From assembly GCA_035221665.1 (NCBI GenBank), contig CM069159.1, forward strand, positions 25,544,001 to 25,608,000: a stretch of 64,000 nucleotides of DNA. The letters are read 5' to 3'. The stretch comes from Okamejei kenojei. Lineage: Eukaryota. Below the pieces are notes generated by a model. It was not told where the DNA came from. It searched no databases and worked only from the letters and a program-made list of their open reading frames with translations. Below, in pieces: positions 2,012 through 61,399 of this stretch (its first letter is position 1; every line of letters begins with the position of its first letter). The translations under genes were made by a program, and so were the position numbers.

Positions 2012-5000
2012 CTTGGGAGAAGAATAGAAGATAAATTGTTCTGAGAGCCCTCTTACAAAACGACTTATTGATAACTCTCAACCACCCTGCCTGATGTCAT
2101 CTGTTGCCGGCTCTGATTTATCTTGATCTTTTCTTGCTTCCAGTTTCTTCTCCCTACAATCAATCTGAAGAAGGGTCCCAACCCGAAACATCACCTATCC
2201 ATGTTCTCCAGAGATGCTGCCTGACCCGCTGAGTTACTCCAGCATTTTGTGTCCATCTTTGGTATGAAACAGCACCTGCAGTTCATTTTTATTACATACC
2301 AGCTTTACATCAAATAATTTTCACACAGTTCTGGATCTTTTTTTTGGTAAGTCAATATTCAACAGTTAATAATGGTTACCAAAACAGGGAAACTCTTTTG
2401 GGGAAATGAATCTACTAAACAGTATGAGCAAGCGGAATTAACATAGAAGATAAAGCAGAAGCACCCTTGTTGTTCCAACAATGCTTGGTAATTTAGCTTC
2501 CTTGTATTGTGACGGGTGGAGAATTTCCAAGGCAATTTCCCTGAACGCATCAGCACTCACTGCTGTAGCAAATATAATGTACAAAGCCAGTCAGAAAGGA
2601 CAACAATCCTATTTTTTTTAATGAACATGCTCCTTCAAAATTTGCAACATAAAAGCTATTCAATGAAAATCCTACACTTGGTATTACACTTTTTATACAC
2701 AGCAACAGCTTATTCAGACATTGATGGTAATTGATGGTATGCAGCAAGCCTGAAAAAGGGTCCCAACCCGAAACGTCACCCATCCTTTTTCTCCAGACAT
2801 GCTGAGTTACTCCAGCAGTGTCGATCTTCAAGCGCTCCTTTAGTGTGGTTGAGCCAACTGTTCCGTGTAGACTGTTTCAAATTCTGAACAATGAGTAAGT
2901 TCCTCCTTAATATTCATATGCTAAAAAACTGTTTTTATCCACGAGCAGTTGCTCTACTCAACAGCCAAAAATCTGTAGCCTTCCTTTGATCTGGTATTTT
3001 GTTGGTTCACATGCTTGATCAATGGTGTTTTATCATTAATGTTTTATTATTATTAATGTTTAGTGTTTCTGAGTCATTCGTAGGTGTCACTGTCACTGTC
3101 ACTGTATGTTACTTGTGTGCGGAGCACCAAAGCAAATACCTTGTATGTGAATACTTGGCCAATAAACAAACTTACTTACTTGTGTTGAATTTACTCTCTC
3201 TAAATTAGGATACACTAAAGGATAGACACAAAATGTTGGAGTAACTCAGCAGGACAGGCAGCATCTCTGGAAACTCGTGACCGGAAAGGACAAATGTGTC
3301 CTTTATCGTCCATTGAGAAATGGAACACTGTTAGATTACATTGTACTCAATTTCAATGTATTAATCCACCTATGTTACAAGCCTGGCATCTCATATTTTG
3401 GTGCAGTCCTCTACATTGTTAACAATACTGTAAATTCCAACATTCAATATTTCCAATTTAAGATTTCAGTTAATTTATGTACATACTTTAAAATACAAAT
3501 GTATTTCATGACTGCATGGTCTCTCATGAACTGCACAGCCAATGAAGGACCTTAATAGACACTGCTATAAAGTAGAGAATACAGCATCCAATTCAAAAGA
3601 AGAGCAGATCTACAAAGAGCAAAGTGCTATGACAAGATTATTTACCTTCAACCAGCACTAATAAAGATCCATCACCAGAACACCAAAAATAACTCCTGCA
3701 CAACCATTTAAGCAAACACCGTTGATCTTATAAATCAACTCAAAAGAGTGGCTATGGTCTTGAAAGTTGGTGCATTTGATTTTGCAGCGATCCCTCAGTT
3801 CTGCACTTTCACCATACATTTTGCATTACATATTATAGCGCACAATCCAAGGGGAGATGAAAGCTATCAAATAACTTACACATGATAAAAATAATGCATT
3901 TACAATCATTAATTATTTAGAAATATGTACAGTTGTCAAGATGACACATGAAGGGTAGATCAATGCTAACACCAGTGGCATTTATGGTTATATCCCTGAC
4001 ATAAAACCATGCCAATCTGAGTACAGGATGAACAGAAAGGCTGATATCTACGGAGAATGGAGTAAGATCGATGGTCCAAAGTGGGATATTCCATCACTCT
4101 AACATACTTCACCCATTCCCCATGAAGTACAGGGTCAGAATTGATTGGCTGGCCTCTTGGCTTGGACTGGAGTGCAACGTGGGAAGAAAAAAGAAAGGTC
4201 AAGAAACAAAAAAAACACCAACAAAAAATGCTGGGCTCAGAGAATCTCAGCAAAATAAAAGAAACATACTGACAAGTGAAGAAGTGCTGAATAAATAAAT
4301 TATCTTGTAAAGTTTTCTGATGTATACTGAGCATTAACAGCTCATGCACTCGTTATTTTTGATGCACAATAGGATGCTTTCCATCCGATCACCCTGGGAT
4401 TCACTTCTTAGGCCATTATAAGTACCGAAGAACTTGGATTAGGATGAAATAATGATTCATGTGGAGAAATTCCTCTTTGCTGGTGTAAAGTAGATTTACT
4501 GATTCAATTAACCTCTATAGTAAACAAAATGCGAATTGGATTCTTTAATGAAAATACTTATTTTTCTGAACTTTTAACAATCCATATTTTTCTATTAACT
4601 CACTTCTTGATGCTTTTCTTCAGCTGTCATTTTCAAACCCTGAAGGTCAATCGAGTGTTTGTTCTTGAGTTTTTCCAGTTCCTGCAGGAGAAATTACGTT
4701 ACATGAAAAAAAGAAAATTCCTACTTATTCACACCACAAGTGTATTCCTTAAGTCTAGAAAAATTGGCCTGAGCACAGGTTGGAACTGCACATTCCAATT
4801 TTATCATTGTCCGTTTAGATAACTATTAAATCGAACAAAATTACTAATATTCCTGTTATACCACCTCTTGTTGGACATCCTCCATAATAGGATCTCTGGG
4901 ATGCAATTTTGACCGTCTTTTTTTAAATTTATTTTACTTTATTATTTATGACTGTATTCCAGTTCAAATTGGGATACTGAAATATCACAATTTCACTATC

Positions 5001-8000
5001 CCCGCACTTCTGCACTTATCAGAAATGTGTCTACAAATCTATCTCTCTCAAACTTCCCAACAAAGTAATTGTCATTTTGTTCTTTGAATCAAGCCATATT
5101 GCAATTTGATGTTCTAACATAACCATCACTTTCCATGGCTGCAATGTTTCTTTAATCGATATTGCCACTCTTTCTTCTTCAACTCTCACTCTCTCTACCC
5201 CATCTGAAAATCCTGAAACCAATAATATTAAGATGCTATTACTTATCCTATTTGTGAATGCTTTCAATAATTAAAATATTAGTTATGCATATGCCTGTGC
5301 TCCTTACTCATGTTATGCCTCAAAATGCAAGGAGAAGAATTTGCAATTTGACGCATAACATTAGGCACAGCTAGACACCTTGCCTATTTTCTAAACTTTG
5401 TTTTCTCTACCTTCCAAACTTTCACTAACTTTTTACCTTTTATTTTTACTTCTGCTTTTCTCCCTTCAGAATCTATGCTCATATTCCCATCCCCATCTAG
5501 TTTAAACAGAACAAGTACATTTGCCCATGATAATATTGGTCGGCTCAGTTGTGGTGCAATCCATGTTGTCTGACCTGCACAAGAACAAGCCCAATGCCCC
5601 AGTTATCAGCCATCCTTCTTGGACCATCTCTCCAGACGGACAGTCATCTGCACTAGCTTCCTATTTCTACGTTCTGGTGCATAGTAACTGGAAGTAATCC
5701 AAGATTAATACCTTTGAAGTTTTGCTTAATCTCTTTCCTCTTTAAAATCTACCTATATGGCCTTCATCCATTTTTCGACCTACTCCATGAGTACTGAGAA
5801 GTGCGGCACAGCGGCGCAGCAGCAGAGTTGCTGTTTTACAGCCTGGGTTCGATCCTGACTACAGGTGCTGGCTGTATGGAATTTTCCCTGTGACTGCGTG
5901 GGTTTTCTCCGGGTGCTCTATTTTCCTCCCACACTCCATTGGTGTGCAGGTTTGTAGGTTAAGTGGCTTCTCTAAATTGTCTCTAGTGTGTAGAATAGAA
6001 TTAGTGCACGGGAGATTGTTGGTCGGCGTAGACTCAGTGGGCAAAAGGGCATGTTTCCATGCTGTATCTCTAAACATAGAAACATAGAAACATAGAAACA
6101 TAGAAATTAGGTGCAGGAGTAGGCCATTCAGCCCTTCGAGCCTGCACCGCCATTCAATATGATCATGGCTGATTATCCAACTCAGTATCCCGTACCTGCC
6201 TTCTCTCCATACCCTCTGATCCCCTTAGCCACAAGGGCCACATCCAACTCACTCTTAAATATAGCCAATGAACTGGCCTCAACTACCCTCTGTGGCAGAG
6301 AGTTCCAGAGACTCACCACTCTCTGTGTGAAAAAAGTCTTTCTCATCTCGGTCTTAAAGGATTTCCCCCTTATCCTTAAGCTGTGACCCCTTGTCCTGGA
6401 CTTCCCCAACATCGGGAACAATCTTCCTGCATCTAGCCTGTCCAACCCCTAAACTAAACTACTTTGGTTTGCACCAACATGGTTTGGTTTTATGTGGAAT
6501 AATCCATAATTTATTTTATATTTATTTAATGTTGTTATGTTAATGTGCATGTAGTTGCAGCAAGTAAGAATGACTATGATAGAGAAGGCGGAGGAGAGAT
6601 TTAATTGAGGCAAATAATACTACAACGTGCCTAGATAGAATGACTAGCAAGGAACTAGATCCTTTGGGAAAGGGTTATAAATTTGCTGCCTGAATGGGTA
6701 GCAGAGGCTGAACCATCAATGCAATTACCCCATACTTCGATGTGCTTGAAGAACCATGACATGAAAGGCTATGGAACAACCGATGGAAGGTGGGATTAGG
6801 GTAGTCAACTCTTTCAAGATGAGCCGAATGCTCTGCCTCTGTGTAGATTTTGTATGATTCTGACATACAGTGATCGTACCTGTACAATTACTGTGACCAA
6901 GCTAACGACTACCTCCAAGATCATCTGATATAACATTCAGTAATATCTAGTAATCTAGAACAGATAAGCGAACAAGCTTTGGATATTGATGAACTCAAAA
7001 ATGTTCAATTTTAATCTTGAGATTCCATGACAATGTACTTAAATATGTTATCAGGAATTGTAGGCTGAGATTTTCCAGTTATGTTCTCATTTCCATCTTT
7101 CACCGTATTTAACAGAGGGAAATAGCAACAAGCAGTTAAACAGCTGTTTGGGATGTCATTCCCTTAATGTTTCCTTGAAGTTAATACAAATTAAACCAAG
7201 ATCTCATTTCAGTCCAATATAGTCCTAATAAATGGTGTTATCCTAATGAAGAAAGACAAAGACATCACAGACTCAAAATAAAGGGATAAAAAGTGAAGAA
7301 AGTAGTAGGGGCTTTTGGATATAGTATCAATCTTTTAACGTATTTTTCAGCGAAGAACCACTTTCAAACACATTTCACACTCTCAAAGCAACTGGGTCCC
7401 TCAACTTGGGGGTTCAAGTAAAATAATCATGTGATTTCTATGCTAACATTATTATACTGCAACAAATTTAACAGTAACACTGCATGCAATGTTGGAAGTT
7501 ACTTTCAATCTGATTGCTGAATTTAACGTTCAAGTAAATAACAGCATCTTTTCTTTTCATAATGGTCTATTTGGCTTCTTGGATGGCAGAGGAACATAAG
7601 ATGTAAATTGCAAAGGCATTCAGCACTCGGTAATATCCAATACCTTTTTTGTGGAGAGGAAAACCTATTTTCGAGTTTAGTTTAGTTTAGAGATTAGAGA
7701 TACAGCACGGAAACAGGCCCTTCGGCCCATTGAGTCCGCGATCACCTCGTACAGTAATTCTATCCTACACACTAGGGACAATTTACAATTTTACCGAAGC
7801 CAATTAACCTACAAACCTATATATCTTTGGAGTGTGGGAGGAAACCAGAGCACCTGGAAAAAAAAGTCACAGGGAGAGCATACAAACTCTATACAGACAC
7901 CACCAGAGGTCAGAATTGAACCTAGGCCTGCCACTGCGCTAAAGTGCCACCCCAAAACTTCAGTATTACCAATTGCTAAAAGCAGAAACGCACCTCTTCT

Positions 8001-11000: not shown

Positions 11001-14000
11001 GAGACCTAGGATATTCCAACAAACCACAGTGAGGCATTTGTTATACAAGGAAATAGATTCTGGTTTATTTAAAAAAAAACAAAGTGCTGGAGTGACTTTG
11101 CAATCAGGCAGCATCTCTGGTGAACATGGATAGGTTACAATTCAGGTCAGGACCCTTCCTCAGACTGATTGTGGTGGGGGTGGGGGAGAAAGCTGGAAGA
11201 GAGGAATGGCAGAAAAAATCCTGGCGAGTTATAGAATACAGGTAAGAGGGGTTTTTGATACAAGGATAGAAGTGGTGCGAATTGTGAAGCCAGAGAATGG
11301 AATATAGGTGGAATGGGGGGGGGGGGGGGGGGGGGGGGGGGGGAGGGGAAAAAAGTCCAGGTGGACAGAGAAATGGTGGTGGGGTGGGGGAGAAGAAAAG
11401 AAATGCTGTTTGTAGGTTAGTTACCTAAAATTGAAGAATTCAATGTTCATACCATCATATCATAAGCTACCCAAGCAGAATATGAGAAGGCGTCCCTCTA
11501 GTTTGTGTGTGGCCTCACTCTGGCAATGGAGGAGGTCCAGGAAGTCTCAGTATGGAAATGGCAAGGGGAATCAAAATATTTAACAACCAGGAGATCTGGT
11601 CGGGTTTGGTGGAGCGACCTAACCAGTGAGGCATATATATGTTAAATTGAATTAGCAGCCTTCCATCTATTTATTTACTTTACCCATGCCGAATCTTCTG
11701 AGACATTTGTGATGTAGTGTAGGCTGATAACCTTTTCTTCTCATTTTAAAAATATGAGAATGACATTCTTATATTGGTGGTAACATCCAATTTCAATTCA
11801 AATACCTTGATGAAATCACTGTTTACTGCACTGACTGTGGTTCTCACCGAGAACAACAGAATAAAAAGCTGAAACACCTTTTCCAAAAACTTTTTCCAAA
11901 ACCCATCAGTCACACAACTTCACGGAATCAGCTCACCCTGACATGACTGTAAATGAGGAAAAACACTTTGGCTTCTCTGCCGTACTCCATTTCCAAGAAA
12001 TAACCATTAAAATCATTGTAATACACATTTTGTGCACATCATATATTACAGGATCAATGACCTAAATTACTCCATGTGATATAAATCAGCTGGAAATTGA
12101 TGTTTACCCTTCAGATGATTCTACACAACGAGAAAGTATTTTTTGTAACATTGAAGATGTCAGAGTGAAGTGGAGCAATAGGTTGAAGCTGCTGCGATCT
12201 CTCAATCTTTGTTTTATATAATAGCCATTGACAATTTTTCTCTGAAAGCTTCTATATAGGTAATCTTTAAACTTTTCAAAAATGACACTTTTACGGACAA
12301 GATTATTCATCCTAACTGCCGAAGCTTTTACCCATTATTATCTAAAGGTGAGATTTTTTTTTGAATTATGATGCTATGAAGCGCACTGCTTGAAAGGACT
12401 GTGGGAGAAGACACAATAGTAACTATGAAAAGGAAATTGAATGTACTTGGAGAGAAAATTGCAGAGCTACAGAGCAGAAGAGTAGCATTGGCATGATGGA
12501 TCAACTGCTGCCGCCACCTTATTGCTAAGTCCCATCATTATATAACAACTGCTTACCCTCTCTGACAGGAGTAACCTGTATTCAACTTCTAGTGTTAAAA
12601 TAGGCTGAGAGTCAATGGGGCGATTGGAACTTAATCAAAATTGTGCAGTATGCAAGAAAATAACATTGAGTTAAGGACATCCTGTCAATAGACAAGATGG
12701 AGCACATGCATTCAGCATCAAAGCAACTGCATGACTCCATAATGCAATGACATAATTTAATCAAAATATAGATGGCTGCAGTTACATTCAGAAGCTGTAC
12801 GTTTCAGAGGGGGCAGGAAGCTGCTTCTGGATGGCCATTAGTTCCACTACACTTCCATTATCCTTAGGCAATCATCATTTTCCTTCTTGTCTGGCAGATT
12901 ACTTAAAAGACTCTTGCCGTTTTCATCTTTGTGTCTGTTATCATGTGTAATCTTCTCATTCGCGCTTCACGGGGATTTAGAAAAAGGGTAAGGACCATGT
13001 GCAAAGGATTCTATTATCATGACAAACCGTTGCAGCTTTCTCATATTATCAAGGCCTGATGGAAGATCCATGGAGATGATGTAGCTTCAGTTATCAGAGT
13101 ACCATGCAGACAGCAGACAAACTGTCAGAAAATCACTGGATTCCTAAGTCACAGACTATGGAGTTGGGAAAGTGCCAAGGGAACAGTTTGCAAACAGACA
13201 GAATTTAAAAATAGTTGGGAACTGATCCTTTAACACTCCTCTCTAAATGATTTCTTCCCTCTCATTCTTTGTCCTGTAGGTAAATCATTTAGTGAAAGCG
13301 CCACACTAATGTTCATGCCCGAAGAGGGTTATTTCATTTCTTTGTTCGTGCACTTCCTTTGCTGATATCAGAAATGGCCACCTGTCTCAAAAAGATTGAT
13401 TCTACTGCAGATCTTCAGCTGTCTCTTATCAAATCAGATTCACATTATAGTTTACCACCTCTTTTATTGGTACGATTCAACTGTACACATCTTCAAATTA
13501 GCTGAATGTTATCAGAACCATTAAATTCCAGTGTTATGCAAGTCAGATTAAACAGCTGTGTTTTATCTCGGACACATTAATCTTGATCATAAAAAGTTGT
13601 TTCACTGTAGTTATTTTTTCCTTTATCGAAAACGGTGTCTGAGACAGGCTGGGAAGATCATCAAGGACCCCTCCCACCCTAACCATGGACTGTTTGCCCT
13701 CCTACCATCGGGGAGGCGGTACAGGAGCCTCAGGTCCCGCACCAGCAGGATGAGGAGTAGCTTCTACAATAACACCATCGTACTGCTGAACTCGGAGTCC
13801 CGCCGATAGATTCCCACATCTGTATTTATTTATCTGTATTTATCTAAACATTGCTATCACTACGTACTGACACTAAACTGCATTTCGTTGTACCCATACT
13901 TGTATCTGTGCAATGACATTAAATTTGAATTGAATTGAATTGAATTTGATTTCTTCTGTGGGTCACTGCAGTTATGTGCTAGTTGCAGCAGGTAAAAATC

Positions 14001-17000
14001 AAAGTGTCTAATTCTCACCAACTTGTCTATTGAAACTGCTGGGGCAAATGCACAAGTGAACGTGGAATTTCACAGTGGAATTACAATGAGCAAATATTTT
14101 ATAAGAAAAATGAACAAAGTGATTTCCTAAATGTTGGAGGGTGTTATAAACCTAACAAATATATTTTGAAATTTGGGAATCATTTAAGAACATTTAAAAA
14201 CAGGAAAGGTATTGTTTATATTAAATTAAGCTGCTAAGCACAGAAAATTATTTAGGGCGTCCATAAACAATTAACATGATATTGGTTTATTATTGTTACG
14301 GGTACTGAGAGGCAGCAAAAATCTTTGTTTGCGTGCTATCTAGTTAAATCATACTGTACATGAGTACAATCAAACCATTATGTAACTCCAAGAGCTAGTA
14401 CATAGAGAAAAATGCCAAAGTGCACAATTAGTGTTACAACGTTATAGTGTTATGGTAATGGAAAAAAAGAGCAGATTAAAAAAAAGTGCAAGGACTGATA
14501 TAGGTTGGAAGTTCAGAACTACACCCTTAGCTTATGGGAGGTCTGTTAAGTAGTCTGATAACAGCGGGGAACAGCACTTTTTGAATCTGGTGGTACATGC
14601 TTTCAAACATTTGCATCTTCTGCCTGATGGGAGAAGGGAAATAACCAGAGTGCAGCATGGTTCTTTATTAATTTGGCTGGCTTCCTGAGGCAATATGAAG
14701 TATAGATGGAGTTGATGGGGGAGATGGCATTGCTGGATTGTGTAATGGACTGGGCCACATCCACAACTCTTTGCAATTTGTTAAAGTTGTTTGTCTTACA
14801 GTTGTTGCCAAATCAAGCTGTGATGCATTCCAATAGGATGCTTTCTATGGTGCATTTGTAGAAGTTGCTAAGAGTGTTAGAAGACATACTGAACTCCCTG
14901 AAGGGTAGTGAATACTTTGAAGTCACCCCAAATAATGCATTTAAAAAGCAGCTCTGGGGATAGAGGACATATATACACACAAGCAAATGAAATTTGCTTG
15001 GTATGGAAACTATAAACAAACTAGAAAGGTGTCCCAACTTGTGAGCTATCATTATAAAATTCTGGTGACAGGATGGCCATTTGGGTTGACAGTTCACATC
15101 TGATCTTGAATACCAAATATGTACCTTTCAGAAGGCTCTGCTCTTTTCCTTCTTTCTTCAAGATTTAGTTCCCTGGTATCTTCCTCCTCCTTCGAATACA
15201 AATATGAGATCAGAACAATACCTATTGATGTTATTTAATAAAACTTACACCATGTCAATACTTTCTTGCCTTGCTGTTGCACATTTTTAAATCAGTGTTT
15301 ACAGAACCCAAATCTCGGCGATCACCGTACGTCCTAACTTTTCTTTATTTAAAGAATACTTGAGATCAATCGTTTTTTTGTCCAAAATGCACTCTTGCAT
15401 TCAACTGCTTCCAGGGTAGACATAAAATGCTGGAGTAACTCAGCAGGACAGACAACAGCTCTGGAGAGAAGGAATGGGTGATGTTTCGGGTCGAGACCCT
15501 TCTTCAGACTTCTTGGTTCTTGACCCGAAACGCCACCCATTCCTTCTCCCCATGTCAATTTTATCCTCGAGACGTTCAATTTGACTTGTTGGATATGGAT
15601 TGTTATTTACAACTTATGTTGGAGATCTCTATTCGGCTCACATATTATCAAGTTTATAGTCATTGTTCATATCTCTCACATGCGCAATAACTCTCAGAGT
15701 TATTACAATTAATACAATCTACTGAAATCAACATAACAGACTAAAATGAATCTCCCGTCTTGGTCCTGAAGCACTATTTTGACCTGAAATTGCCACATTT
15801 ACTTCACACCCCCCTCTTCCCCAGCACAAATGCTACTCAACCCACTGAGTTTCTCCAGAAGAGTGTATGTTGCTCCAAATTCCAGGATCTGTATTTGGGT
15901 CTCCACTGAAATTACTTGCAATGGCACTTGATATCAAAATTTGATCCTAAAATGATCAGACTTCAAATTTATGCCACTAATTCTTACAGATCATTTTCAA
16001 CAATTAAAATACTGCCGTTAAAATGGAGGTCGTCCTCCCTAAAGCTCAGAGCATTTGTTTTTTAACTGCAGGTTAAAGGAATAACGCTCTGAAAGTAATT
16101 TAGCTACCCCAAAGAACAAAATATCGATTTTATCCTCTAGTATAAGCAGATTGCCAATATTTCCAATTACCTTCATGCATCAAAAATATAGAAACTGATT
16201 GTACCTATGATGCATAAACATTAAAACATGGTTAATGATTTTATCTGACGGAGGATTCAATCAATTACAGGTACAGATATCTATGGACTGTTTTACAGAG
16301 AATGCTTGAGGATGTTCCAGAGCATTTCACAGACAATGACGAACTCCTCAAAAATGTAATCACTATTACAGCGCAGGGAAATATCACAGAGAAATTAACA
16401 AGAAAACATTATTTATTGGCATTAGTTAAGCAATAATTATTGTCCAAAATCTTTGGGGAGTCCAATGCTTTTCTTCAAATAATGCCCTGGGGAATTTTAC
16501 ATCTGCTCAAATAGTTCGGGAGTCAAACCACATTAATGACGGTGCTTCCAATCAGCTCCAATCTGTACTACACAACATTCTCAGCCTCCATTAAGTACTG
16601 AGAAGGAACTTGAACTCATTACTTTCTGATTCAAATGGGATGCTGAATGTTTAGAAAAGGGTTGAGAGTTGTGGGGTTCAACTGGGAACAGAAACACTGG
16701 GCAGAAGATCACGTCATATGATGGAGTCCCTTGCTTACTTTCACTGTCTTATGGTCTATCTATGCTCCTATCTATTACCAGCAGTATTTTGACATTTTAA
16801 TAATTACGACCAGTTTAAAAGGAAAACTGTTGTTTACGCAACCCCATACAAACTCATATTTCCTCCCAATCCATCCAAAATAGTAGGCAGTCATTTAAGC
16901 AAACCCCGGGAAGTTTGTATTTGCTGGTACTCCACCAACCTGCAGCAAAATTTTAATTTGCCATCACCTGGGTATAAAATAGACGATAAAGAAAAAATAC

Positions 17001-20000
17001 ACAAGATGTAATAGAATAAATGAAGGGTGTAAAATGACATTTGTGATAAAAATAAATCAGCATAGATAAGAAAAACAGCCAAAAGGTTTCATAGGGAATC
17101 AGTGGGAATGGGAGTAATCAATGGGGATAATCAGCTGTCGGGGAATGATCAACATGTGTGTAGTTTAGTTTAGAGAGAGCACGGAAACAGGTGCCCTCCC
17201 CCCCCCCCCTCGATCTCCCACTCCCACTAGTTCTGTGTTATCCCACATTCTCGTCCAAACCCTACACACTAGGGGCAAATTGCACATCTTTGAGATGTTG
17301 GAGGAAACCAGAGCACCTGGAGGAAAGATACAGGGAGAACGTGCAAACTCTGCACAGACAGCATCCAAAGTCAGGATTGAACCCGGGTCTCTGGCACTGT
17401 GAAGCAGCAGCTCTACCAGCTGCACCACCCTTGATACTTTTGTTAGTTAAAAATAGCCCACACTTTCTTTCAGTTAGAGAATAGTCTCTTCAAATGTTTA
17501 ATGAAACACTATGCATGTGTGACTGGTTGGAATAACCTTTACGCCCTATTTAAAAAAAAATAGAACTTCTAAAAACGCCTTCTTATTAGCTGATTTGAAT
17601 CAATGGAAAAGGAAGCTGTTGCTTTTATATTGCAAAGGAACATTTATGCTTCCAATAAATGGACCTGCATGTACACTCATGAGAGGCAGGCAATGTTGGA
17701 GCATCTCAGAAGGTGAAAATGAGAAAATGTACAATGGTATGAAATTAACGCTTGATAAAGTGTAACTGCTTCCTGAGAGAATTGAAACTTTGATGGTTTG
17801 AGGACTATGCCAGCTGAACATGTTCAGACATGTTTTGTGCTCTCGCCATAAATATTAGGCCAAAAGCAAGTGAGCAAAAAAAAAAATTGTGTTTCTGTGC
17901 CGGTGCATGTGTTAAGTAACTTGAGAACATTCGAAGGAGGGAAGTATAAATTAGCCTCCAGCTTCTGGGTTCAAGCTCACGCCAGATTGCAAAATGCTGT
18001 TGGTTCACATGCTTGATCAATGGTGTTTTATCATTAATGTCTACTATTCTTAATGTTTAGCATTTTCTGAGTCATTTGTAACTGTCACTGTATGTCATGT
18101 TGTTACTTGTGGGCGGAGCACCAAGGCAAATTCCTTGTATGTGAATACTTGGCCAATAAACTTAATTACTTTTTTTTAAAGAAGGAACTGCAGATGCTGG
18201 AGAATCGAGGGTACACAAAAAGCTGGAGAAACTCAGCGGGTGCAGCAGCATCTAAGGAGCGAAGGAGATAGGCGACGTTTCGGGTCGAGACCCTTCTTCA
18301 GACTGGTCAGGGATCAGGGAAACGAGAGATATAGACAGTGATGTGGAGAGATAAGGAACAATGAGTGAAAGATATGCAAAAAAGTATCGGTGATAAAGGG
18401 AACAAGCCTAACTTAATTACTTAGTCTCTAAAGATAAGAATAAATGCTACATGTATAGCAGTGACTACTGAGTACTGAGCTGAGGTACTGAATCACCAAC
18501 TAGAGAGCTGTCCTAACGGACCACCTACCTCATTGGAGTCCCTCAGACTATCTTTTATCAGACTTTATCTTACACAAAACGTTATACCCTTATACTTTAT
18601 CGGTATACTGTGGAGGGCTTGATTGTAGTTATGTATAGTCTTTTCGCTGACTGGATAGCACACATCAACACTGTACCTCAGTACACGTGACAATCATAAA
18701 CTAAACTACGTACGTAAAAGAACAAAGTGAACTTTATGTTTAAGTAACCGGAGTGGTTGATGCTAATACTGAATAGCGAAAAAAAAAAAATGAGAAATAT
18801 TCTGCTTCTCCAAAACGAATGAAAAATAATTGTGCATTTGTTAACATTTTAAATTGCAAGTTTAAGAATATTTCTATGGTCATCTGGGATAGTTGAATGC
18901 AGCCACCACTTCATACGATATTAATTCCGTGAATGGAGTTATGTAAGTCCTCATTCATAACCCTTTAGTACCTAGAAGGTGACTCTGCCATCTGGTCTTG
19001 GAGTGCCAGTACAGACACAGAAATAGAAATCTCTAAAATAGCCACTAAGTCATGGGAATTTCTAAACAGAACCAACAGAAGGAATCCCCAGCATCATGCC
19101 GTTAAAATATAATTAAACTCAATTATTTTTACGACTGATTGCTTTCCATTAAATAATTCCTCCTGGCCTGTGGTAGCAACTTGTGATCTTGTTCTTAACT
19201 CTGACTTAATTGAAATTAACTTTGCAAAGTTGGAGCACTATCTTTACTGGATACCAAGTACAATTTGATTTTGTTTTAATAAGAGATGCGTTACTGAAAT
19301 TAAACTATGCCTTACAGTAATTGTATTGAATGATTACCATTGTTCAAACTCAATTACCTTCTTCTATAAAGTTATTGGGCTACGTTAGTTACCCAAACTG
19401 ACAGAATTTTCAATTAAATAGCCTCCCGCCATGGAAGGTGAATGTAAATGTTTAACTTCCAAAGGGATCTGAAAGGTATTTCTCCTCACAAAAGGTTCTG
19501 GGTTTGACCTGTACTGGGCATGACTCCAGAGGTTTCAGCTATTCTTCATGCAAGCCTGAATAGCAAGTATCAATGGATCATTCAACTGCGAAGAACAGAA
19601 GTCAAAATTGACAATATCTTCACTGACATGTGCCATTTCCAGTGCACAGAGGAGAAGGGAATAATCTTATTGGCACACTGGCTAGCATTTGCAAACTCAG
19701 TGCACACTATGGTCTGAGGAAGTTATTAGCTTTAATAGCTCACTTTCACAAAGGAAAACACATTTCCCAGGAGAATCTTCAAAGAATGTTTAGAACAGGC
19801 GACATTCTATGTGATCATCCCAGCAGCCTCTAAGCTATCTGCAGATCAATTGCTATGAATGATATAATAGCGAGCTCATGATCAGTGCTGAAGTTGATGG
19901 GTGCATGAATTGCAATCTGCAAAGAGTAGAAAGCGAGCATAAAATGTCTATAAAAATGTAAATTAATTCAAAGGGGATACCTCTCCTGTGCACTCTCCTG

Positions 20001-44560: not shown

Positions 44561-44596
<36 letters not shown>

Positions 44597-47500
44597 ACCA
44601 AATCAGTTTGAAGAAGTGCCCTGACCTGAAACATCATCTATCCATGTTCTCTGCAGATGCTGCCTGACCCGCTGAGATGCTCCAGCACTTTGTGTTGTCT
44701 ATCATATAGGACCAGTTACACTAAACGGTCTATTCCCTGCTGAACATTCCACGCAATCATATGAAATAACTGTAGTAAACTAGAAAGATAATTCTTATTA
44801 AATCAAAATTACTTTTCCTTTGTTTACTTGCAATCAATGCATTAACACTGGTTAGTGCAGGGAAAATGCAATATGACTGGCACAACTAAATCATTGACAA
44901 GTTATATTTTCTAAAGCACTAATGGTAAAAGATTTTGCTGAGTTCTCTCATTTTCTTTTTTTCTCACACATACACCTCAGATAATTACTAAACTGCTCAA
45001 GCAACCAGGAATTAATTTGGTGTTGCTTTTTGTGAATCCCAGAGGGGAAAATCTAATTACTGTTACCCGATTCGTTCTGCCAGCAGGGGTGGTATTTCAT
45101 CTGTACCACAGCTGGAGAATATACTGGAGATACAATCTTTAACCCTGTGAATAGCAAGGCAATATTAAAAGTATCTACACACATGCCTCAAATAGTATAA
45201 AACGGCTGGAAATTAAAGAAGCAATTAGTGGCTTCACAGAACCCTATTCTACTCTAACAGTCAATGTTTCAGAATAAATGCAGAGGAAGTAAATGCTATT
45301 CTTGCCAGGTCATGCATAGAAAAATGCATCTCCTTTAAAATCATTCTTGACATGGATACTCTCCCCAGCTGGAGACTTTATGATCTTTTGTGACTCTTCC
45401 CATATGAGCGTCTGAAAACAAAAAGTCAATCACACTTAAAGGGAAGATACGAGCACCTTCACGTGGCTAAATGTACATGAACAACTGCTCATGCCCTTTG
45501 TCTGGCTGAGCAGAAAGCCTCTTCATTCTTTGCCTGCCTCTTCAACTTTACCCAAGGAATCACATGTAATAAACACTCTACCCATGCTTGAATGCCTGCT
45601 CAAAATAGTTTTTCAGCACATTCTTCTTGAAACCATCATGTGAAGGTAATATGTTCCACATGTATTGGTCACATCCAACTTGCTCACATTGCTGCCTCAC
45701 GACCCATCTCTTGGTAGCTCCACCAGAGGTCATAGCCTCAGAATTAAAGGGCTCTCGTTTAGAAAGGAGGTGAGGAGAAAGTTCTTTAGTCAGAGGGTTG
45801 TTAATCTGTGGATCATTGCCACAGAGGGCTGTGGAGGCCGTCAGGTGGATACAGAAATAGACAAATTCCTGATTAGAATGGGTGTCATGGGTTATGGGGA
45901 GAAGGCAGGAAAATGGGATTAGGAAGCAGAGATCAGCCATGATTGAATGGCGGAATAGCCTCGATGGGCCGAATGGCATAATTCTATTCCTATAACTTGT
46001 GAACTTGTGAAAAGGGGCTAGAAATGTCATTGAGGAAAAGAGGGGCTTTGGTATAAAAGGCCAAAAAAGGTAGCAAGGTAACAACCTTAGATAATGTTGT
46101 TAAGGAGATAGATGTAGGGGATTCGGCTTTTCGTTAGTTGGGGGCATTGAGTACAAGAGCAGGGAGGTTATGCTCCAACTTTGTGAAACACTGCTTGGAT
46201 CTCAGCAAGGGTAATGCACACAGATCTGATCACCGCACAATAGGAGAGATGTGATAGCACTGGAAAGGTGCAGAGATTCACTAGGATGGAGCACAATTAG
46301 TTACGAACAATGAAGCATATGAGTTATGAGCAAAGACTAGTCTGTTATCCATGATGTGGTGGAGATTAAGAAAGGATAATATGTTTGAGATACTTATAAT
46401 GATGAGCGGTATAGATAGATAGGGTAGACTGCAGGAATCTTTTCCCCATATCAGATTTAACAATAACTACTAAAGGACACTTACTGAGGACAAGAACCGT
46501 AGAGGGGATTTGCAAGGAACCTTTTTCATCCAGAATGTCAGGTACCTGGAATGAACTGATTGAGAGAGTGGTGAAGGCAGAGTCGCTAACAGAATTAAAA
46601 AGATGCTGAGACACTGAAACTACAGCAGGTGCTGGATTTTTATGGATGGGTGCACACAGGTGTGCGCCGACATGGTGGGCCGAATGGCCTATTTCCATTA
46701 TGTATGGGAAAGAACAGCAGATGCTGGTTTAAATCAAAGGTAGACACAAATGCTGGTGTGACTCAGCGGGACAGGTAACATCTCTGGAGAGAAGGAATGG
46801 GTGATGTTTCGGGTTGAGACCCCTCTTCTGCTGTCTCGACCCGAAACGTCACCCATTCCTTGCATCCAGAGATGCTACCTGTCCCGCTGAGTTACTCCAG
46901 CCTTTTGTGTCTACTTTCCATTATGTATGACTCTATAATACCTTATTTGGTTACAGATGTCATAAAAATGCAAGGCACTGTTCTAGGAACAGAAAATGGG
47001 CGCACCTCAGGTTGTGAAATTGTATATTTTTATTGCCACATGCAGTGTACAGGACATTCCATCAGTAAGTAAAGCCCCTGTCCCACTTTTACAACCTAAT
47101 TGGCGACCTCTGCCGAGTTTGCCCTTGACTCATACAAGCAGCATGTCGCCACGAGGTCGTAGCAGGTCTTCGTAACTCTTCCTAATGCTCGTGAGTGGTT
47201 TCCACGTATTCGACGCCTCAAGTAGATTGCGGCGTTTTTTTCAGCCTGATAAAAAATGTCCACGAGCACAAAAAAAAGGTCGGCATGGAAAAAACTGATA
47301 CTTTTTACTCGTAGGTAGGTCGTAGTAGATCGTGATGGTAGTCGTAGGTAGTCGTAGGTCAGTAATTGGCCCGAGAAAAAAAATGCAAACATGCAATCAT
47401 TTTATCATGTGATAAATTTCCAATCGTAGCTAGTCGTAGTTGGTCTTAGGTGTGGAAGACTGAGGTCGAGAGGGGTCATAGGAGGTCATAGACATAGTCG

Positions 47501-53500: not shown

Positions 53501-56500
53501 TTTCAGCATTCCACCTACTAAAGTACAAAAACATATCAGAATTATAGGTATTTATTATTTTAAAATGGCATTCCTTCCCATAAGTTGGAAACGGCTGTTT
53601 TGTGGATTTGCTGAGTTTTGTAACTGAAGCTGGATTCATGTGGTTTAGAACGCTATTGGAAATGAAATAAATTATTAACTTAAAACACCGCCTGTCATTT
53701 GTTTCACATTATCGTTAATGTTGTATTCAGCCTTTGCAAATTCAGCATTTGTGATGCAGGTCTATACTGTGCGTGTTATAGAAGAACAAACTGTTGGAGA
53801 AACAACAGATAAGGCTGCGTATGCAGAAGGAATCAGACAGATGATGTTTCGGGCAAGGACCCTTTTTCAGATCGATGGAGTAGAGAGGAGATAGCTGGTG
53901 GAAAGTGATAAGGGAAGGGGTGGGGAAAGAGATAGCAAGTGATGGTGGGTCCAGCTGAAGAGGGGGATAGTCGGCAGATGAGTCCGCTGGGGGAAAAGGA
54001 TGGGGTTGGAGCAGACCAAAGGGTGCAAATGGCAGAATCTGATATGGTAGGAAAGTGGGGAGTGAAATATTGATCTAGAGGATAAGTATGATGGGGGGGG
54101 GGGGAAATTGGGAAAATTGGGTTGGGATGTGAGTGGATGGATGAGGTGGTGGAGAACTTGTTAACACTTGCCACGTATCTTCTCCTCATCTCTTTCAACT
54201 AACTACCCATCTCTAGTCTCATCTTGAAGAAGGGTTCAGACCCAAAAGGTTGACTGTTCATTTCCCTCAACAGAGGCGACCTGACCCATTGAATTCCTTC
54301 AGCAGTTTGTATTTTTCAGAATACAAGATTCAGCATCTGCATTCTCTCGCGTCTCTATTACGTAAGCAACTTTATTGAAAATTAGGTCACCAAAGGCAGG
54401 GATTGGGAAAAGGTTAGAGAAAGCCATCGAGTCCTTCAATATATTGGAATAAGGACAAATATCAGCAGCTATTGCAACATAATGTTTCAATATTTCAGAT
54501 TCCCAGGATCAACTATAACTTTTTTTAAAGATTCCATACAGTCTGACACCGCATTGGGACTAAGGGGATTTTGTGGACTTTGTACTTGGACTGTGACTTT
54601 AAAAAGAATCTCATAACATCTCATCCATAAAATAATTTAATGATTCCATAAAATAAAAATTAAATGTAAGACAATACAATCAGATAGAGAGATTGGGCTT
54701 CAAAAGGAAAACTGAAACATTGACTTACCTCATACTCAAAACCAATACCAAGGGATCCCACGTCTAAGTGGAGGTTTTTCATAAGCTGAGCAGTATTGGG
54801 ACCACTCTATGGGAACAAATTATTTGAAGAGTTCTTTATTGATGTGAAATTCTCAAAGAAATCATCTAGCATCTTCATTAACGGGCTTTTTCTTGGATAT
54901 TTATAATAACACAGAACTAAGCAGCAATAGTCAAGATACCTTTCTTGAAATCAGTTTGAAAGATGCTATTTTTGACCACAAATGCCATCCTCAGACACAT
55001 CAAGCCAAATTGCATTAATAATGTTTTTGATATTAACATTCAGAAACATCATCCAACAACTTATTTTTCATAAGAACAGTCTGATCAAGGTTCACTACTT
55101 GTCTCATGGTCCAGTGGCAAAACCCTACATTCATCTCTATGGCACAGAATTTAAACCAAGTGGCTTTTCCACACTTCTCTTCCTGATTTTTATCTGAAAA
55201 AGAAAATTGAGCACCATTTTGTGCTGTTTAACTTCATCACAAACACCATTGCATATCCACGCACCACTTCCAAATACTTGTAGGTGAAATCTTTCCAGAA
55301 TGATGAGTTTTCAAATATTATATACTGGAAGAAACATGGGTTGTTAATAAGTGAGATTTTTTTTTTGTTTTAAATCAATGCAAATCACATACTGGTAAAC
55401 CTTTTTTGAAACCGTTTTGGGTAAAAGAGCATAAGGAATTTGGCTATGAGTTGAAAAATATGTTCAAAATACAACATTACTGTAAAATCAAGGTATAAAA
55501 AGTATGACGGTTGAAATACGTTATTTTGACTAGTTTATTTGATGAAAATTGCAAAATAGGTTTTATCAGTTATTGAGTTTATTATTACCATTGCACAACA
55601 TGACATTATCAACACGTATAACATTATAACATAATTAGGACTGCTGAAAATTGTCACCAATTGTGCAATTCCAAAAGTTAATTGCAATTTTAATTGCATT
55701 ATAAAATAATGATGGAATGCCAGTATTATTGGAAGGAAAACAGAGGGAGGCCAGCAAAAAGGAGATGGCACAGAAGGGAGGGGTGAGCAGAAGAGAGCTT
55801 GTGAGGGGAGGAAAGGGAGAGCTAGGGAACAGATGAAGGGGAAAACGAGGGAAGCAGGTGAAGGGAAGGGGGGGGGGATGAGAGGGCAGGAGAAAGGAGG
55901 GAGAGCCGGGGAACATGCAAAATGAGGGTAGCGAGGGGACAGGAGTATTAATTCTCAGCAGTTTCCATCCATAGAGGGGAATGGGGGAGGATGGGTTCTG
56001 GGCCACGTGCATCGTTGGAGGTGAGGGGTGGCACCTAGGCTACATACAGACAGGATGCCTTGAAAGAATTTAAAGACCATAAAATGGCAAAATATGAAAG
56101 CAGAAGCTTTGGCAGGTCTTCCTATGGTTATCCTGAAACCCATCTACAGTCTTTTAAAGATAAGTTTCAATCCCTTTTCATTAAAAACTTGGTTTTGGCT
56201 TTGAGTGATGCCAGCAAATATTGTCTTTCATGGATTGCTTTAAGGAACAGTGATCTCTTATCATTTGTAATTTTATTCTTTACAACTGTTGGGCCGTTTT
56301 ATAGGACGCATGAACCACATCATGTGGAAATGGAGCCAGGCTTGGCCAACGATGTAAGATTCACTTTCTTCTCATTTGTATTTAAGGACATTTTAGACAA
56401 TAGACAATAGGTGCAGGAGTAGGCCATTCGGCCCTTCGGGCCAGCACCACCATTCAATGTGATCATGGCTGATCTTCCTCAATCAGTACCCCATTCCTGC

Positions 56501-59500
56501 CTTCTCCCCATATCGCCTAACACCGCTATCTTTAAGAGCCCTATCTAGCTCTCTCTTGAAAGTATCCAGAAAACCGGCCTCCACCGCCCTCAGAGGCAGT
56601 GAATTCCACAGATTCACAACTCCCTATGTGAAAAAGTGTTTCCTCATCTCCATTCTAAATGGCTTACTCCTTATTCTTAAACTGTGGCCCCTGGTTCTAG
56701 ACTCCCCCAACATCGGGAACATGTTTCCTGCCTCTAGCTTGTCCAAACCCTTAATAATCTTATATGTTTATGTCCCCTCTCATTTTGGTGGCATTTTTAT
56801 AGTCTTTCTGATGATCTTACTGCCTCACAATTTCCTTCTCTTAACCTCATTATTTGCCTCAGTCAGCTTGGCATACAATCAATCAATGCTCAACAGCTAG
56901 TTTGGCATTATAGCCATTCCACTAATGTAGATACCTTCTCGCCACTCAAGTCTTCTTCATCCTCACTGAGGTCAGCTAGGTTCAGGGATATCTTCTCTTC
57001 AAGTGCTCCCAGAATGCCTTTTGTAAGGCCACTTGTTTTAGGGATCTTCAGTGCCACATATGAACAAAATGGTTATTAGGCAAGCAATAACGTTGTATTG
57101 AAATATTTAAACCCTTTTATCAAACTTGGATTACATTTATAATTACACAATGCCTGCCAATACAGACCAGTTTTCTTTTGACAGAAAACAATGGTAGAAT
57201 AACGGTTTGATAGCTTCTGCTGAATATTTCATTGAATATTTAACAAAATCAGAAAACTGGAGATTGCAAACCTCAACAACCTCTCCTAGATTTAATATTA
57301 AAAAGGTCACATTTCAGAATTCTATGGGGTTTCTTAAGTGTATTAAAGCATCCTGTGGTTGACACAAAATGCTGGAGTAACTCAGCAGGTGAGGCAGCAT
57401 CTCTGGAGAGAAAGAATGGGCGACCTTTCGGGACGTGACCCTTTTCAGACTGATGTCAAGGGAGGGGGCGGGACAAAGATAGAATGTAGTCGGATACAGT
57501 AAGACTAGTGGGAGAATTGGGAAGGGGAAGGGGATGTAGAGAGAAAGCAAAGGCTATCTGAAGTTAGAGAAGTCAATGTTCATACCGCTACCAAAACTAC
57601 CCAAGCAGAATATACCGCTACCCATAAACTACCCAAGCAAAATATGGGGTGCTGTTCCTCCAATTTGCGCTGGGCCTCACTCTGACAAAGGAGCAGACCC
57701 AGAGCCGAAAGGTCAGATTGGGAATGGGAGGTAGAGTTGAAGTGCTGAGCAACCGGGAGATCAGGTAGGTTAAGACGCACTGAGCGGAAGTGTTCAGTAA
57801 AACGATCGCCGAGCCTGCGCTTGGCCTCGTCAATGTAGAGAAGTTGACACCTGGAACTGCGGATGCAATAGATGCGGTTGGAGGATGTGCAAGGGAACCT
57901 CTGCCTCACCTGGAAAGACTGTTTGGGTTCTTGGATGGAGTCGAGGGGGGAGATAAAAAGACAGGTGTTGCATCTTCTGCAGTTGCAGGGGAAGGTACCT
58001 GGGGAGGGGGTGGTTTGAGTGGGAAGGGACGAGTTGACGAGGGAGTTTCCGAGGGAACGCTCTGGGGAAAGTAGAAAGGGGTGGAGATGGGAAGATGTGG
58101 CCAGTAGTGGGATCCCGTTGGAGGTGGCGAAAATGTTGGAGGATTATATGCTGTATGCGACGGCTGATGAGGCGGATGGTGAGGACAAGGGAGTGCAGGA
58201 TGGAAATTAGTGGTGAAGTTGATGAAGTCAGTGATTTCTGCATGGGTACAGGAGGTAGCACCAATGCAGTCGTCAATATAGCGGAGGTTGAGTTCGAGGA
58301 TAGGGCCAGTGAACACCTGGAACAGGGATTGTTCAACATACTCTACAATGAGGTAGGCATAGCTAGGGCCCATGCGGGTGCCCATAGCTACGCCTCAGAT
58401 TTGGGGGAAGTGGGAGGAGTCGAAGGAGAAGTTGTTGAGGGTAAGGACCAGCTCTGTAGGCGGAGGAGAGTATTGATAGACAGAAATTGGCTAGTTCTGT
58501 GGTCGAGGAAGAAACGGAGGGCTTTAATACCCTCCTGGTGGGGGATGGAGGTGTACAGTGACAGGACATTCATAGTAAAGAAGAGGGAGTGGGGGCCTGG
58601 AAAATGGAAGTAATTGAGGAGAACGTGGGAGGTGTCTTGGAAATAGGTAGGGAGGGATTAGACCAGGGGGGATAGGATGGAGTCGAGGTATGTGAAAATT
58701 AATTTGGTGGGATATGAACAAACAAAAACAATGGGTCTGTCAGGATAGCTGTTTGTGGATTTTGGGGAGAAGATAAAATTGGGCCATGCAGGGCTGGGGA
58801 ACGATAAGGTTGGAGGCTTTAGAGGGCAGAGAGCCGGAAGTGATTAAATCAGTAATGGTGCTTGAGGTTAAGGCCTGTTGCTCGTCTGTGGGGTTATGGT
58901 CCAAGGATATGTAGGAGGAGGTGTCGGAGAGTTGTCGCCTGGCCTCAGTCCGATAGACGTCAGTGCGCCAGACTACCACGGCACCTCCCTTGTTGGCAGG
59001 TTTGATTATCCAGTCCGGGTTGCCGCAGAGTGAGTGGGGGCAGTTGGAAATTAAAAGCTCTAAATAAGGTAGAGGGCCATCCAGGGGAGTCCAAGAGGAG
59101 GGGGTTCGTTGGAGACGGGAGAAGAGGCCATCACTGGGTGGTGAGGACTCCTTCCCATAGAAAAAAGACACGGAGGCGGAGGTGACGGAAGAAGAGCTCT
59201 ACATCGTGGCGGACGCGGAACCTGTTGAGGTGGGGGCAGAGGGGAACAAAGGTGAGGCCTCTGCTGAGGACAGACCTTTCCGTATCAGAAAGTGGGAAGT
59301 CAGGGGGGGTGGAGAACACACGGCAAGGGTGGGGGTTGGAGTCGGTTGAGAGCAAGTGAGTAGGTGAGCGAGTAGCATCCTGTGTTATGTTTGCCGCACA
59401 GTCTATCTAAACAACAAAATTCCTCTGGCCCTTTTGGATCTTAAAGCTCCCAGTTTAATCATTCTGTCACATTGCCACTTGCATCCAGTACTCAGCCATC

Positions 59501-60745: not shown

Positions 60746-61176
60746 CTGTGAAAAATAAAGATACAGACACGGGTGATAGCATTGTGACACTTGCACAAAA
60801 TGGACGATAGAAAGCTTAGAAGTATGTGACCTAGTACCAATGTGTTAAAGTCATGCTGTTAAATGATATCCATACCAAAATCTATGTTAAACGAAACAAA
60901 CCTAAACCACTTATATTTCTACCATCTGTTCCCAACAACATTAACTTCTACCCAGACACTATACAAAACATACAAAGAATTTGCCCATACCTATTACTCA
61001 TGAAGAATTGGAAGACTTCAATTCACAAGGCTATTCAACGATAAAGGAAAAGTCATTGCAAAGCCTGATGCTGCCTTATTGCATGCACATGCTGCAAGCT
61101 CTGCATTGAAGTAGGATTCAGAAGTTATTTTCAGGACTGAACATAGAAATCCTTGAACTGACTATTGGATTGTTTA

Positions 61177-61399
61177 ATTTAAGAAAGAACTGCAGATGCT
61201 GGAAAAATCGAAGATAGACAAAAATGCTGGAGAAATTCAGCGGGTGAGGCAGCACCTATGGAGCGAAGGAATAGGTGACGGTTCGGGTCAAGACCCTTCT
61301 TCAGACACTTGAAGAAGGGTCTCGACCCGAAACATCACCGATTTCTTCGCTCCATAGATGCTGCCTCACCCGCTGAGTTTCTCCAGCATTTTTATCTAC
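61177..61399. mobile_element. Fold-back Penelope-derived element
   Basis: 13-bp TSD ATTGGATTGTTTA at 61164-61176 and 61400-61412; ~90-bp inverted arms. Confidence 0.9.

Follow-up and report, generated by a model that had tools for sequence, protein, structure and literature searches.

Results

The stretch of DNA analysed here, called the window throughout, comprises 64,000 nucleotides of the cartilaginous fish Okamejei kenojei (GenBank assembly GCA_035221665.1, contig CM069159.1, positions 25,544,001 to 25,608,000 of the forward strand). It probably belongs to the gene CEP164 and holds many copies of a short repeat unit with a minimal hammerhead ribozyme motif. We show that this unit is the pseudo-long terminal repeat (pseudo-LTR) of a Penelope-like element (PLE), probably of Neptune type, intact copies of which are still present in the genome. 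Positions in the unit are numbered from C3, the first C of CTGAAGA, as 0; the A of the preceding AGT is then -3, and the predicted cut falls after +27. The inserts had originally been placed in CEP164 introns, and this host is probable: exons for the 5' (N-terminal) part of CEP164 are found on the minus strand, 22-25 kb past the right edge of the window (PDB 7nwj, E 5e-18 and 2e-16), and positions 501-996 of a 4,049-nt RNA-like contig cover 40711..41200, a minus-strand host exon that is probably part of CEP164, its 5' exons being upstream on the same strand. No exon of the window could be linked to CEP164 by homology searches, and a coiled-coil exon at 7994-8251 was without homologue.

The repeat motif was found at every place named in the original prediction. 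The exact 28-mer core occurs at 18274-18301(-) and 22258-22285(-), and versions with one to five substitutions at 15480-15507(-), 41734(+), 2165(+), 22818(+) and 24986(+). A profile made from six window copies gave 30 matches in the window at E<0.01 and 34 at E<=1, and a single match (E 0.74) in five shuffled controls. Because seven head-to-head pairs are among them, the 30 matches represent 23 insertions, about one per 2.8 kb and 4.9% of the window, close to the earlier estimate of about 20 inserts at roughly one per 3 kb. Most inserts had been said to keep an intact or decayed core; the motif is indeed recognisable at all cited sites, but the catalytic letters are kept together with stem II in 7 of 30 matches, and with the ACGT palindrome as well in only three (18274-, 22258- and 22818+). 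Nor are all inserts one small unit, since several (18274, 24986, 11078 and 57422) carry more of the element. Across the 2.76-Gb genome the exact 28-mer core occurs 48,215 times and its reversed control not at all. A genome sample of 1,034,000 bases, made of stretches at round coordinates with the window and its neighbours included, holds 421 unit matches, which extrapolates to roughly 1.1 million unit relics in the genome. This density of copies makes the window ordinary for its genome.

The Penelope origin of the inserts is borne out by the position of the unit, which flanks an intact element on both sides and terminates truncated elements at their 3' end. In the intact element (locus L275), two unit cores 3,954 nt apart flank an open reading frame (ORF) of 1,185 amino acids with a reverse transcriptase (RT), a CNRKKCNTC linker and, at its C terminus, a GIY-YIG endonuclease. 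Its ATG lies ~40 nt past the tail, an optional 34-nt sequence that follows the unit, and the protein has a proline-rich stretch. The protein matches RVT_1 (E 4.5e-6) and GIY-YIG (E 0.004), both below the Pfam cut-offs, and has 480 homologues, the top ones with RVT_1 and the best a bamboo-shark protein at 69%. Among 30 RT-bearing genome loci the unit is downstream in all 30, and it or its 3' part is directly upstream in 23 of 30 loci that contain the beginning of the ORF. In the window, a decayed, 5'-truncated element of 2 kb at 57358..59375(-) retains RT, linker, GIY-YIG and 3' untranslated region (UTR), with the unit, lacking the tail, at its end; in a tblastn search the intact protein aligns with it over residues 445-1172, with 51-77% identity, and a 9-bp target-site duplication (TSD) is found at 57349-57357 and 59376-59384. 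Pfam returned no relevant family for eight window frames, four of them decayed Penelope frames. The end of the ORF also precedes the window copies 24986 (24784..25111, plus strand, with 3' UTR, unit and tail) and 11078 (11078..11635, minus strand, an old copy with 3' UTR and a decayed unit).

The linker of this element is of the CX2-5CxxC type, which marks Neptune or Nematis (PMC8557442). The element is probably Neptune-type, as relatives carry the published Acropora Neptune hammerhead; the linker is common to Neptune and Nematis. The marks of endonuclease-bearing (EN+) PLEs are all present, namely partial-tandem pseudo-LTRs, inverted copies, an optional tail and TSDs, an anatomy that is standard for PLEs (PMC3846280). 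Neighbours within 60 nt among the 421 sample matches are head-to-head in 77 cases, tandem in 15 and tail-to-tail in seven. Copies with flank (190) comprise 82 solo units, 58 with an inverted partner and 50 with 3' UTR, and TSDs of 8-25 bp were found in 14 of 34 solo young copies. Endonuclease-linked copies occur in each of three large subfamilies (12/48, 2/73 and 4/38). A private deletion in L278 and a private duplication in L271 are each present in both repeats.

Three loci of the same family deserve mention in their own right. L271 (G000:C24:23310001-23320000) holds near-full-length elements arranged head-to-tail, 4,072 nt apart, with a common private UTR duplication, and is a candidate source locus. 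L279 / L149 (G000:C19:37596001-37606000) is a mini-element in which a unit and its tail are followed by 443 nt of ORF start, oligo-A and another unit; it has the appearance of a jump onto a transcript that had ended early. At L123 (G000:C6:92817263-92827262, minus strand), ~16 TTAGGG repeats lie between the TSD and the 5' end of a 3.8-kb 5'-truncated young Penelope copy, as if telomerase had completed the junction.

The motif has the features of a hammerhead. The catalytic boxes CUGANGA, GAAA and UH are exact in the source elements, and both the extra base between 9 and 10.1 (an A bulge) and the palindromic 15.2-16.2 (ACGT) are present. A descriptor search of 80 metagenome loci encoding homologues found 21 hammerhead motifs, compared with 0-1 in each of 20 shuffles. 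Eight of the 21, chosen for equal stem II length, were aligned with three window copies. CTGA, GA and GAAA are unchanged in 11 of 11 aligned motifs, paired cells amount to 97.7% in stem II and 84.8% in stem I, and the whole-structure covariation of 0.847 was reached in none of 500 shuffles, a result that is not a probability since the rows are related. One metagenome relative's motif is identical to the published Acropora Neptune hammerhead. Since the motifs of the relatives covary and one of them equals the published one, the motif is, as far as sequence tells, the known minimal PLE hammerhead by descent, and the minimal type I layout proposed earlier holds. The remark that stem I is very short was also correct: two of its pairs covary across lineages, and it is only 2 bp here because the third pair is unpaired in all three window copies aligned. 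For stem II, a helix of 4 bp capped by a tetraloop (GGGT-CTCG-ACCC) is the better drawing; a 5-bp stem with a 2-nt loop was rejected on steric grounds, as a matter of general knowledge. Variants of stem II had been said to keep pairing. The GGGT/GCCC variant does pair, but by a one-sided change from U-A to U-G that is not compensatory.

In the window the core is best illustrated by a young copy at 18172..18409(-), which consists of 107 nt of 3' UTR, the unit and the 34-nt tail, bordered by a 13-bp TSD. Its intact minimal core at 18274..18301(-) is composed of CUGAAGA, a bulged A, the 4-bp stem II with tetraloop, GAAA, the palindromic ACGU and a GUC triplet, with a 2-bp stem I and a predicted cut after 18274. 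A scan of the window with Rfam covariance models gave no hammerhead among 11 weak matches at E<=10. Minimal hammerheads are modelled as acting in dimers (PMC6765202). Predicted folds disfavour self-cleavage here: the pair probability of stem II in solo RNA is predicted to be below 0.01, and the hammerhead form of predicted dimers reaches -12.7 kcal/mol vs -19.7 kcal/mol for an alternative duplex. The head-to-head pair at 22158..22377, a single young insertion with a 15-bp TSD and a tail only on its minus arm, is predicted to fold into a single hairpin of ~92 bp (-194.9 kcal/mol) that buries both cores. Minus-strand copies had been thought to sit in the CEP164 pre-mRNA. The host is probable, but the units of the CEP164 span are evenly divided between the strands (21 minus, 20 plus) and therefore nothing points to pre-mRNA cleavage; selection against sense copies was rejected on the same counts.

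Most dispersed cores are decayed. In the genome sample, 192 of the 421 matches span -2..+85; catalytic letters are kept in 54 of these, also stem II in 30, and also the palindrome in 15. To judge from these sequences, many copies may well be inactive, as had been cautioned. The non-CpG catalytic columns have a mean majority of 0.93, similar to invariant columns of the 3' part, and G12 has changed to A in 55 of 187 copies, next to 37 of 185 at a non-core CpG position. By this column comparison, the core of the dispersed copies is no better conserved than the rest of the repeat, which the original prediction had named as a result that would speak against it. Since core decay is neutral-like, the dispersed copies are not under selection. 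Between subfamilies, 3 of 28 core columns differ vs 17 of 58 in the 3' part, which is not significant (p=0.06; catalytic letters alone p=0.49), and core constraint at this level appears only suggestive.

The ends of the copies bear on how they were made. We mapped 50 copies chosen by their 3' part, one of them counted twice. Their 5' ends lie at -7..-2 in 23 cases, at +1..+3 in five, internally in three, and at -107 or beyond in 19; none falls between -106 and -8, and none at +28, the cut site. The 3' ends form two peaks, 29 at +89..+95 and 17 at +125..+132, which differ by the optional tail. In the young copy described above this tail occupies 18175..18208(-) and likely lies between two reverse-transcription start sites, as suggested by the two-peaked 3' ends and by PMC11167929. 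Genome-wide counts of 20-mers of the young subfamily are 53,496 at +44..+63, 20,560 at -20..-1 and 653 just past the tail; ~62% of young copies are therefore without upstream sequence and ~1% run into the ORF. Among 47 unique short copies, 27 start at -3; as the set was enriched for such starts by selection, only the preceding letter is informative, and this is G in 18 of the 27 where the element has C (p=1.5e-5). In L1 and SVA, an untemplated 5' G is generally read as the mark of a cap that was copied (PMC4859970). The TSDs, where found, adjoin the unit with 0-7 extra bases.

A further 499 copies genome-wide have double starts of 30-60 nt. In 30 of them that were fetched (four are older-subfamily copies measured against the young reference), the upstream piece starts at -10..0 in all 30 and ends at +19..+41, and G precedes 9 of the 12 downstream pieces that start at -3. 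We considered whether the RNA 3' end used in such jumps is set by cleavage, and rejected this: the ends of the upstream pieces peak at +30 and +34, only 2 of 30 end at +27, and both of these are older-subfamily copies that cease to match the young reference at that point.

When A(-3) is taken as +1 of a transcript, a putative initiator (Inr) reads TCAGTC in many older copies and CCAGTC in young ones, CGANC is exact at +18..+22, and a putative downstream promoter element (DPE) agrees in four of five letters at +28..+32, with CGG at +27..+29 not matched (consensus of PMC5580651). Assessed post hoc, the chance of these motifs is 1/256 for CGANC and 0.17 for the DPE. In the young copy, the predicted internal RNA polymerase II (Pol II) core promoter at 18272..18306(-) would thus overlap the ribozyme and start at A 18304, with CGANC at +18..+22 and the DPE-like motif at +28..+32; the prediction draws on the 5'-end hot spot, the untemplated G and the published consensus.

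The remaining window copies are of several kinds. Solo units are found on the plus strand at 22815..22942 (starting AGT after a G, with a tail, a U-G stem II variant and a GUU triplet), 31474..31604 (with a tail and a 10-bp TSD), 41726..41838 (without a tail) and 2746..2829 (decayed). Also on the plus strand are an older-subfamily copy with a tail (2142..2296), a unit without a tail that adjoins an N stretch (28541..28641) and a decayed unit with a C-rich 3' UTR remnant (44591..44706). Very decayed units lie at 53786..53888(-) and 54220..54343(+), and 3' fragments at 3218..3271(-), which lacks the core, at 15820..15898(+), which is very decayed, and at 62457..62502(-), beyond the span of the original prediction. 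Further head-to-head pairs occupy 15409..15552 (older subfamily), 32488..32683 and 36477..36675 (both decayed), 38021..38177 (3' halves without core), 46707..46914 (15-bp TSD) and 61177..61399 (13-bp TSD). Weak Rfam matches to microRNA precursors at 38052-38148 are the head-to-head pair of unit halves, and such pairs can mimic microRNA hairpins.

Two other repeat families share the window. Fragments of the 3' part of another long interspersed element, which we take to be CR1/L2-like from its motifs, lie at 6086-6381 / 9885-10180, 25992-26483, 29949-30539, 31915-32316 and 45650-45922, the first two forming a 296-nt inverted pair of 93% identity. A second dispersed family of ~170-190 nt, SINE-like (resembling short interspersed elements, SINEs) and unrelated to the unit, is represented at 5904-6075, 7687-7863, 22555-22738, 23517-23694 and 41903-42080.

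Discussion

Taken together, we consider it likely that the inserts are the pseudo-LTR of a Neptune-type PLE, and that the short ones arose as dead-on-arrival run-off copies, made by the element's own reverse transcriptase from an RNA that was likely capped and uncleaved. From the transcription start onward, the steps are inferred from copy ends, the untemplated G and analogy. Pol II would start at A(-3) from an internal promoter that overlaps the ribozyme. The RT/GIY-YIG protein would nick the DNA and prime inside the RNA at +92 or +126, as the anole element does in vitro. Priming in the 5' pseudo-LTR would reach the cap after 95-130 nt and leave a solo unit, comparable to retroviral strong-stop DNA. 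Fold-back or a second priming could give head-to-head pairs, and long copies and partial tandems could result if synthesis jumped to the 3' end of another RNA or was primed in a downstream pseudo-LTR. The presence of the private changes of L278 and L271 in both repeats, and the structure of L279, support such jumps. The hammerhead would likely matter only in source elements, as a weak ribozyme assisted by dimerization or protein, while dispersed copies decay neutrally.

We would go one step further only tentatively, with a proposal that may well prove wrong. The first 30 nt of the RNA could serve as both Pol II core promoter and hammerhead, and the element could replicate by strong-stop synthesis: priming 95-130 nt from the cap, run-off, and then an obligatory jump to an RNA 3' end for the rest to be copied, resembling first-strand transfer in retroviruses. 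The million solo units would then be failed transfers, and the 499 double-start copies jumps onto capped RNAs of 25-45 nt, the size expected of promoter-proximal pausing. If true, the genome documents in vivo the formation of Penelope pseudo-LTRs and partial tandems.

Several observations weigh against the proposed capped start and run-off copying. Among the first 100 genome matches, taken unfiltered and read by eye, the preceding letter is G in 36, A in 42 and T in 22 (p=0.024), and passenger copies in a larger repeat account for part of that A excess. The G signal is weak in old subfamilies. Invertebrate relatives lack the Inr/CGANC spacing, and CGGCC is found in one subfamily. In the largest old subfamily only 2 of 73 copies have an upstream endonuclease remnant, though 18 of 73 retain 3' UTR. 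Most near-full-length copies extend upstream of -3 with no stop there, and an extra jump, tandem or circle step is therefore needed. Assembled RNA contigs showed no start sites, and the -3 start comes from genomic copies.

The original prediction held that the ribozyme module has spread by itself as a SINE- or retrozyme-like element. In its full form, the solo unit would be a self-propagating SINE or non-LTR retrozyme, transcribed from its own promoter, processed by the hammerhead and copied again in trans by the Penelope enzyme. The ~62% of young copies without upstream sequence would suit such an element, the unit contains a predicted promoter and both priming sites, and PLE pseudo-LTRs gave rise to retrozymes in other animals (bioRxiv 10.64898/2026.07.22.740005). 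What argues against it is that short and long copies look alike. Among 82 long and 69 short young-subfamily copies, taken from the loci analysed and not as a random sample, both kinds share alleles (+80C in 22/82 vs 20/69, +90A in eight of each), and 22 of the 69 short copies are identical to the pseudo-LTR of the intact element over 0..+85. The sole haplotype specific to the 69 short copies belongs to passengers in a 1.7-kb repeat, and in this small sample of the young subfamily no SINE source lineage of its own was found. Only 15 tandem neighbours occur in 421 matches, starts at the cut site number 0 of 50, cores are intact in only 15 of 192, and the sequence past the tail, a protein-binding region by analogy with PMC11167929, is present in ~1% of copies. 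The window has no head-to-tail array with at least two intact ribozymes, and no Rfam match above the gathering score, with no tRNA-directed scan made; the unit is wholly PLE sequence. We therefore do not uphold autonomous spread: the unit is the element's own pseudo-LTR, alleles are common to short and ORF-linked copies, tandems are rare, and endonuclease-linked copies are found in all three large subfamilies. Self-propagation as the origin of the solo units is in our view unlikely, though SINE-like copying at a low level, mainly in the large old subfamily, is compatible with these data.

Two side observations concern the same units. A 49-nt tandem array of the 5' part of the hammerhead, with five junctions listed, at G000:C2:52296734-52296984 is possibly a nascent retrozyme-like satellite. 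A multicopy repeat of at least 1.7 kb (L255, L257, L261, L269, L270 and L229; ~1-1730 of L255) carries an inverted tail and unit near one end as a passenger, and a second, smaller passenger case is seen at L242, L245 and L247.

About as improbable as self-propagation is the view that the short copies are ordinary 5'-truncated 3' ends, with the pile-up at -3 reflecting a stalled RT, microhomology, or folding back at the CAG-T-CTG palindrome in place of an RNA end. PLE insertions are mostly 5'-truncated (bioRxiv 2026), and head-to-head junctions are centred on that palindrome. Stalling of this kind is hard to reconcile with 23 ends within six bases vs none at -106..-8, with the untemplated G before the start, and with the 34 of 47 short copies that have no inverted partner.

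We regard it as very unlikely that splicing produced the RNA behind the short copies, with the pyrimidine tract and CAG|T before the core as acceptor. In the subfamilies inspected the pyrimidine-rich UTR does end in CAG, AAG|GTATGC at the ORF start is a possible donor, and the intron of D. virilis Penelope ends at helix I (PMC4209133). Against this, the TSDs that were found adjoin the unit with no exon between, templated starts peak at -3 and not at -1, and no donor-acceptor joint was seen among the 15 joints shown of 165 in RNA contigs. That solo units are left when the two pseudo-LTRs of a full-length copy recombine at the DNA level, as for solo LTRs and as proposed for rotifer solo pseudo-LTRs without TSDs (PMC3846280), can be practically dismissed, since ~650 full-length junctions face ~33,000 short young copies and the variable upstream ends of full-length copies cannot yield a fixed -3 start with G.

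The class itself is not new, because PLE pseudo-LTR hammerheads, their dispersal as single copies, the tails and the inverted pairs are all published. Added here are a cartilaginous-fish family with a minimal-hammerhead count more than five times those reported for Xenopus or coelacanth, its intact source element, and base-level genomic evidence on the RNA start. How PLEs build pseudo-LTRs and copies longer than the unit, and what role the ribozyme has, are directly testable with this element. The head-to-head pairs place long perfect hairpins in introns, which may matter more to the host than cleavage. Title-level listings of the published literature, to which Repbase/Dfam and subscription papers do not belong, showed neither an account of this family nor one in which solo units originate by run-off at the cap.

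Comparison with known systems

Minimal hammerheads are known from PLE repeats, mostly as dispersed single copies, some on opposite strands as here, with counts of ~4,000 for coelacanth and ~9,000 for Xenopus (PMC4209133). The 48,215 exact cores of the present family far exceed these counts. Table S1 of that paper is without cartilaginous fish, and a term search of its searchable supplement found none. Its Neptune element of Acropora digitifera (Cervera and de la Pena 2014) resembles ours in CUGANGA, one base between 9 and 10.1, G10.1-C11.1, GAAA, the palindromic 15.2-16.2 and the lack of stem III. Stem I is 2 bp here, in contrast to most relatives, which have 3-5 bp; in D. virilis it is 2 bp.

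Non-LTR retrozymes, as defined in PMC7229834 and PMC6765202, are likewise short and non-coding, have a type I hammerhead and are kin to PLE pseudo-LTRs (PMC7229834; bioRxiv 10.64898/2026.07.22.740005); the latter source derives them from pseudo-LTRs and includes one chondrichthyan. In the accounts given there, they form head-to-tail arrays, mostly of 150-450-bp units, with circular RNA, whereas the units described here are dispersed, TSD-flanked monomers and head-to-head pairs.

The Neptune clade of EN+ PLEs (Craig et al. 2021, PMC8557442) shares with our element the RT, the CX2-5CxxC linker (here CNRKKCNTC), the C-terminal GIY-YIG, partial tandems, inverted copies, a 30-40-bp tail and a hammerhead in the pseudo-LTR. 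The long 1,185-aa ORF with its proline-rich stretch sets the present element apart. Penelope of Drosophila virilis (Schostak et al. 2008, PMC2377424) has a TATA-less internal promoter with Inr and DPE in its pseudo-LTR, features that are predicted here, and a 34-bp tail at the ORF start; its intron precedes the hammerhead, while the promoter motifs predicted here overlap it.

A further parallel is the anole element Poseidon, from Anolis carolinensis (Frangieh et al. 2024, PMC11167929). Its priming takes place at two internal sites, one on either side of the tail, and depends on ORF-start RNA; the template stays uncleaved, and cleavage occurs only with protein. The portion of that paper considered here does not describe a fixed capped 5' end yielding solo units, and the Poseidon ORF begins inside the hammerhead, in contrast to the ATG ~40 nt past the tail in our element. 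Two priming sites around the tail, an uncleaved RNA template and the lack of ends at the cut site are nevertheless common to both, as suggested for the present family by its genomic copies.

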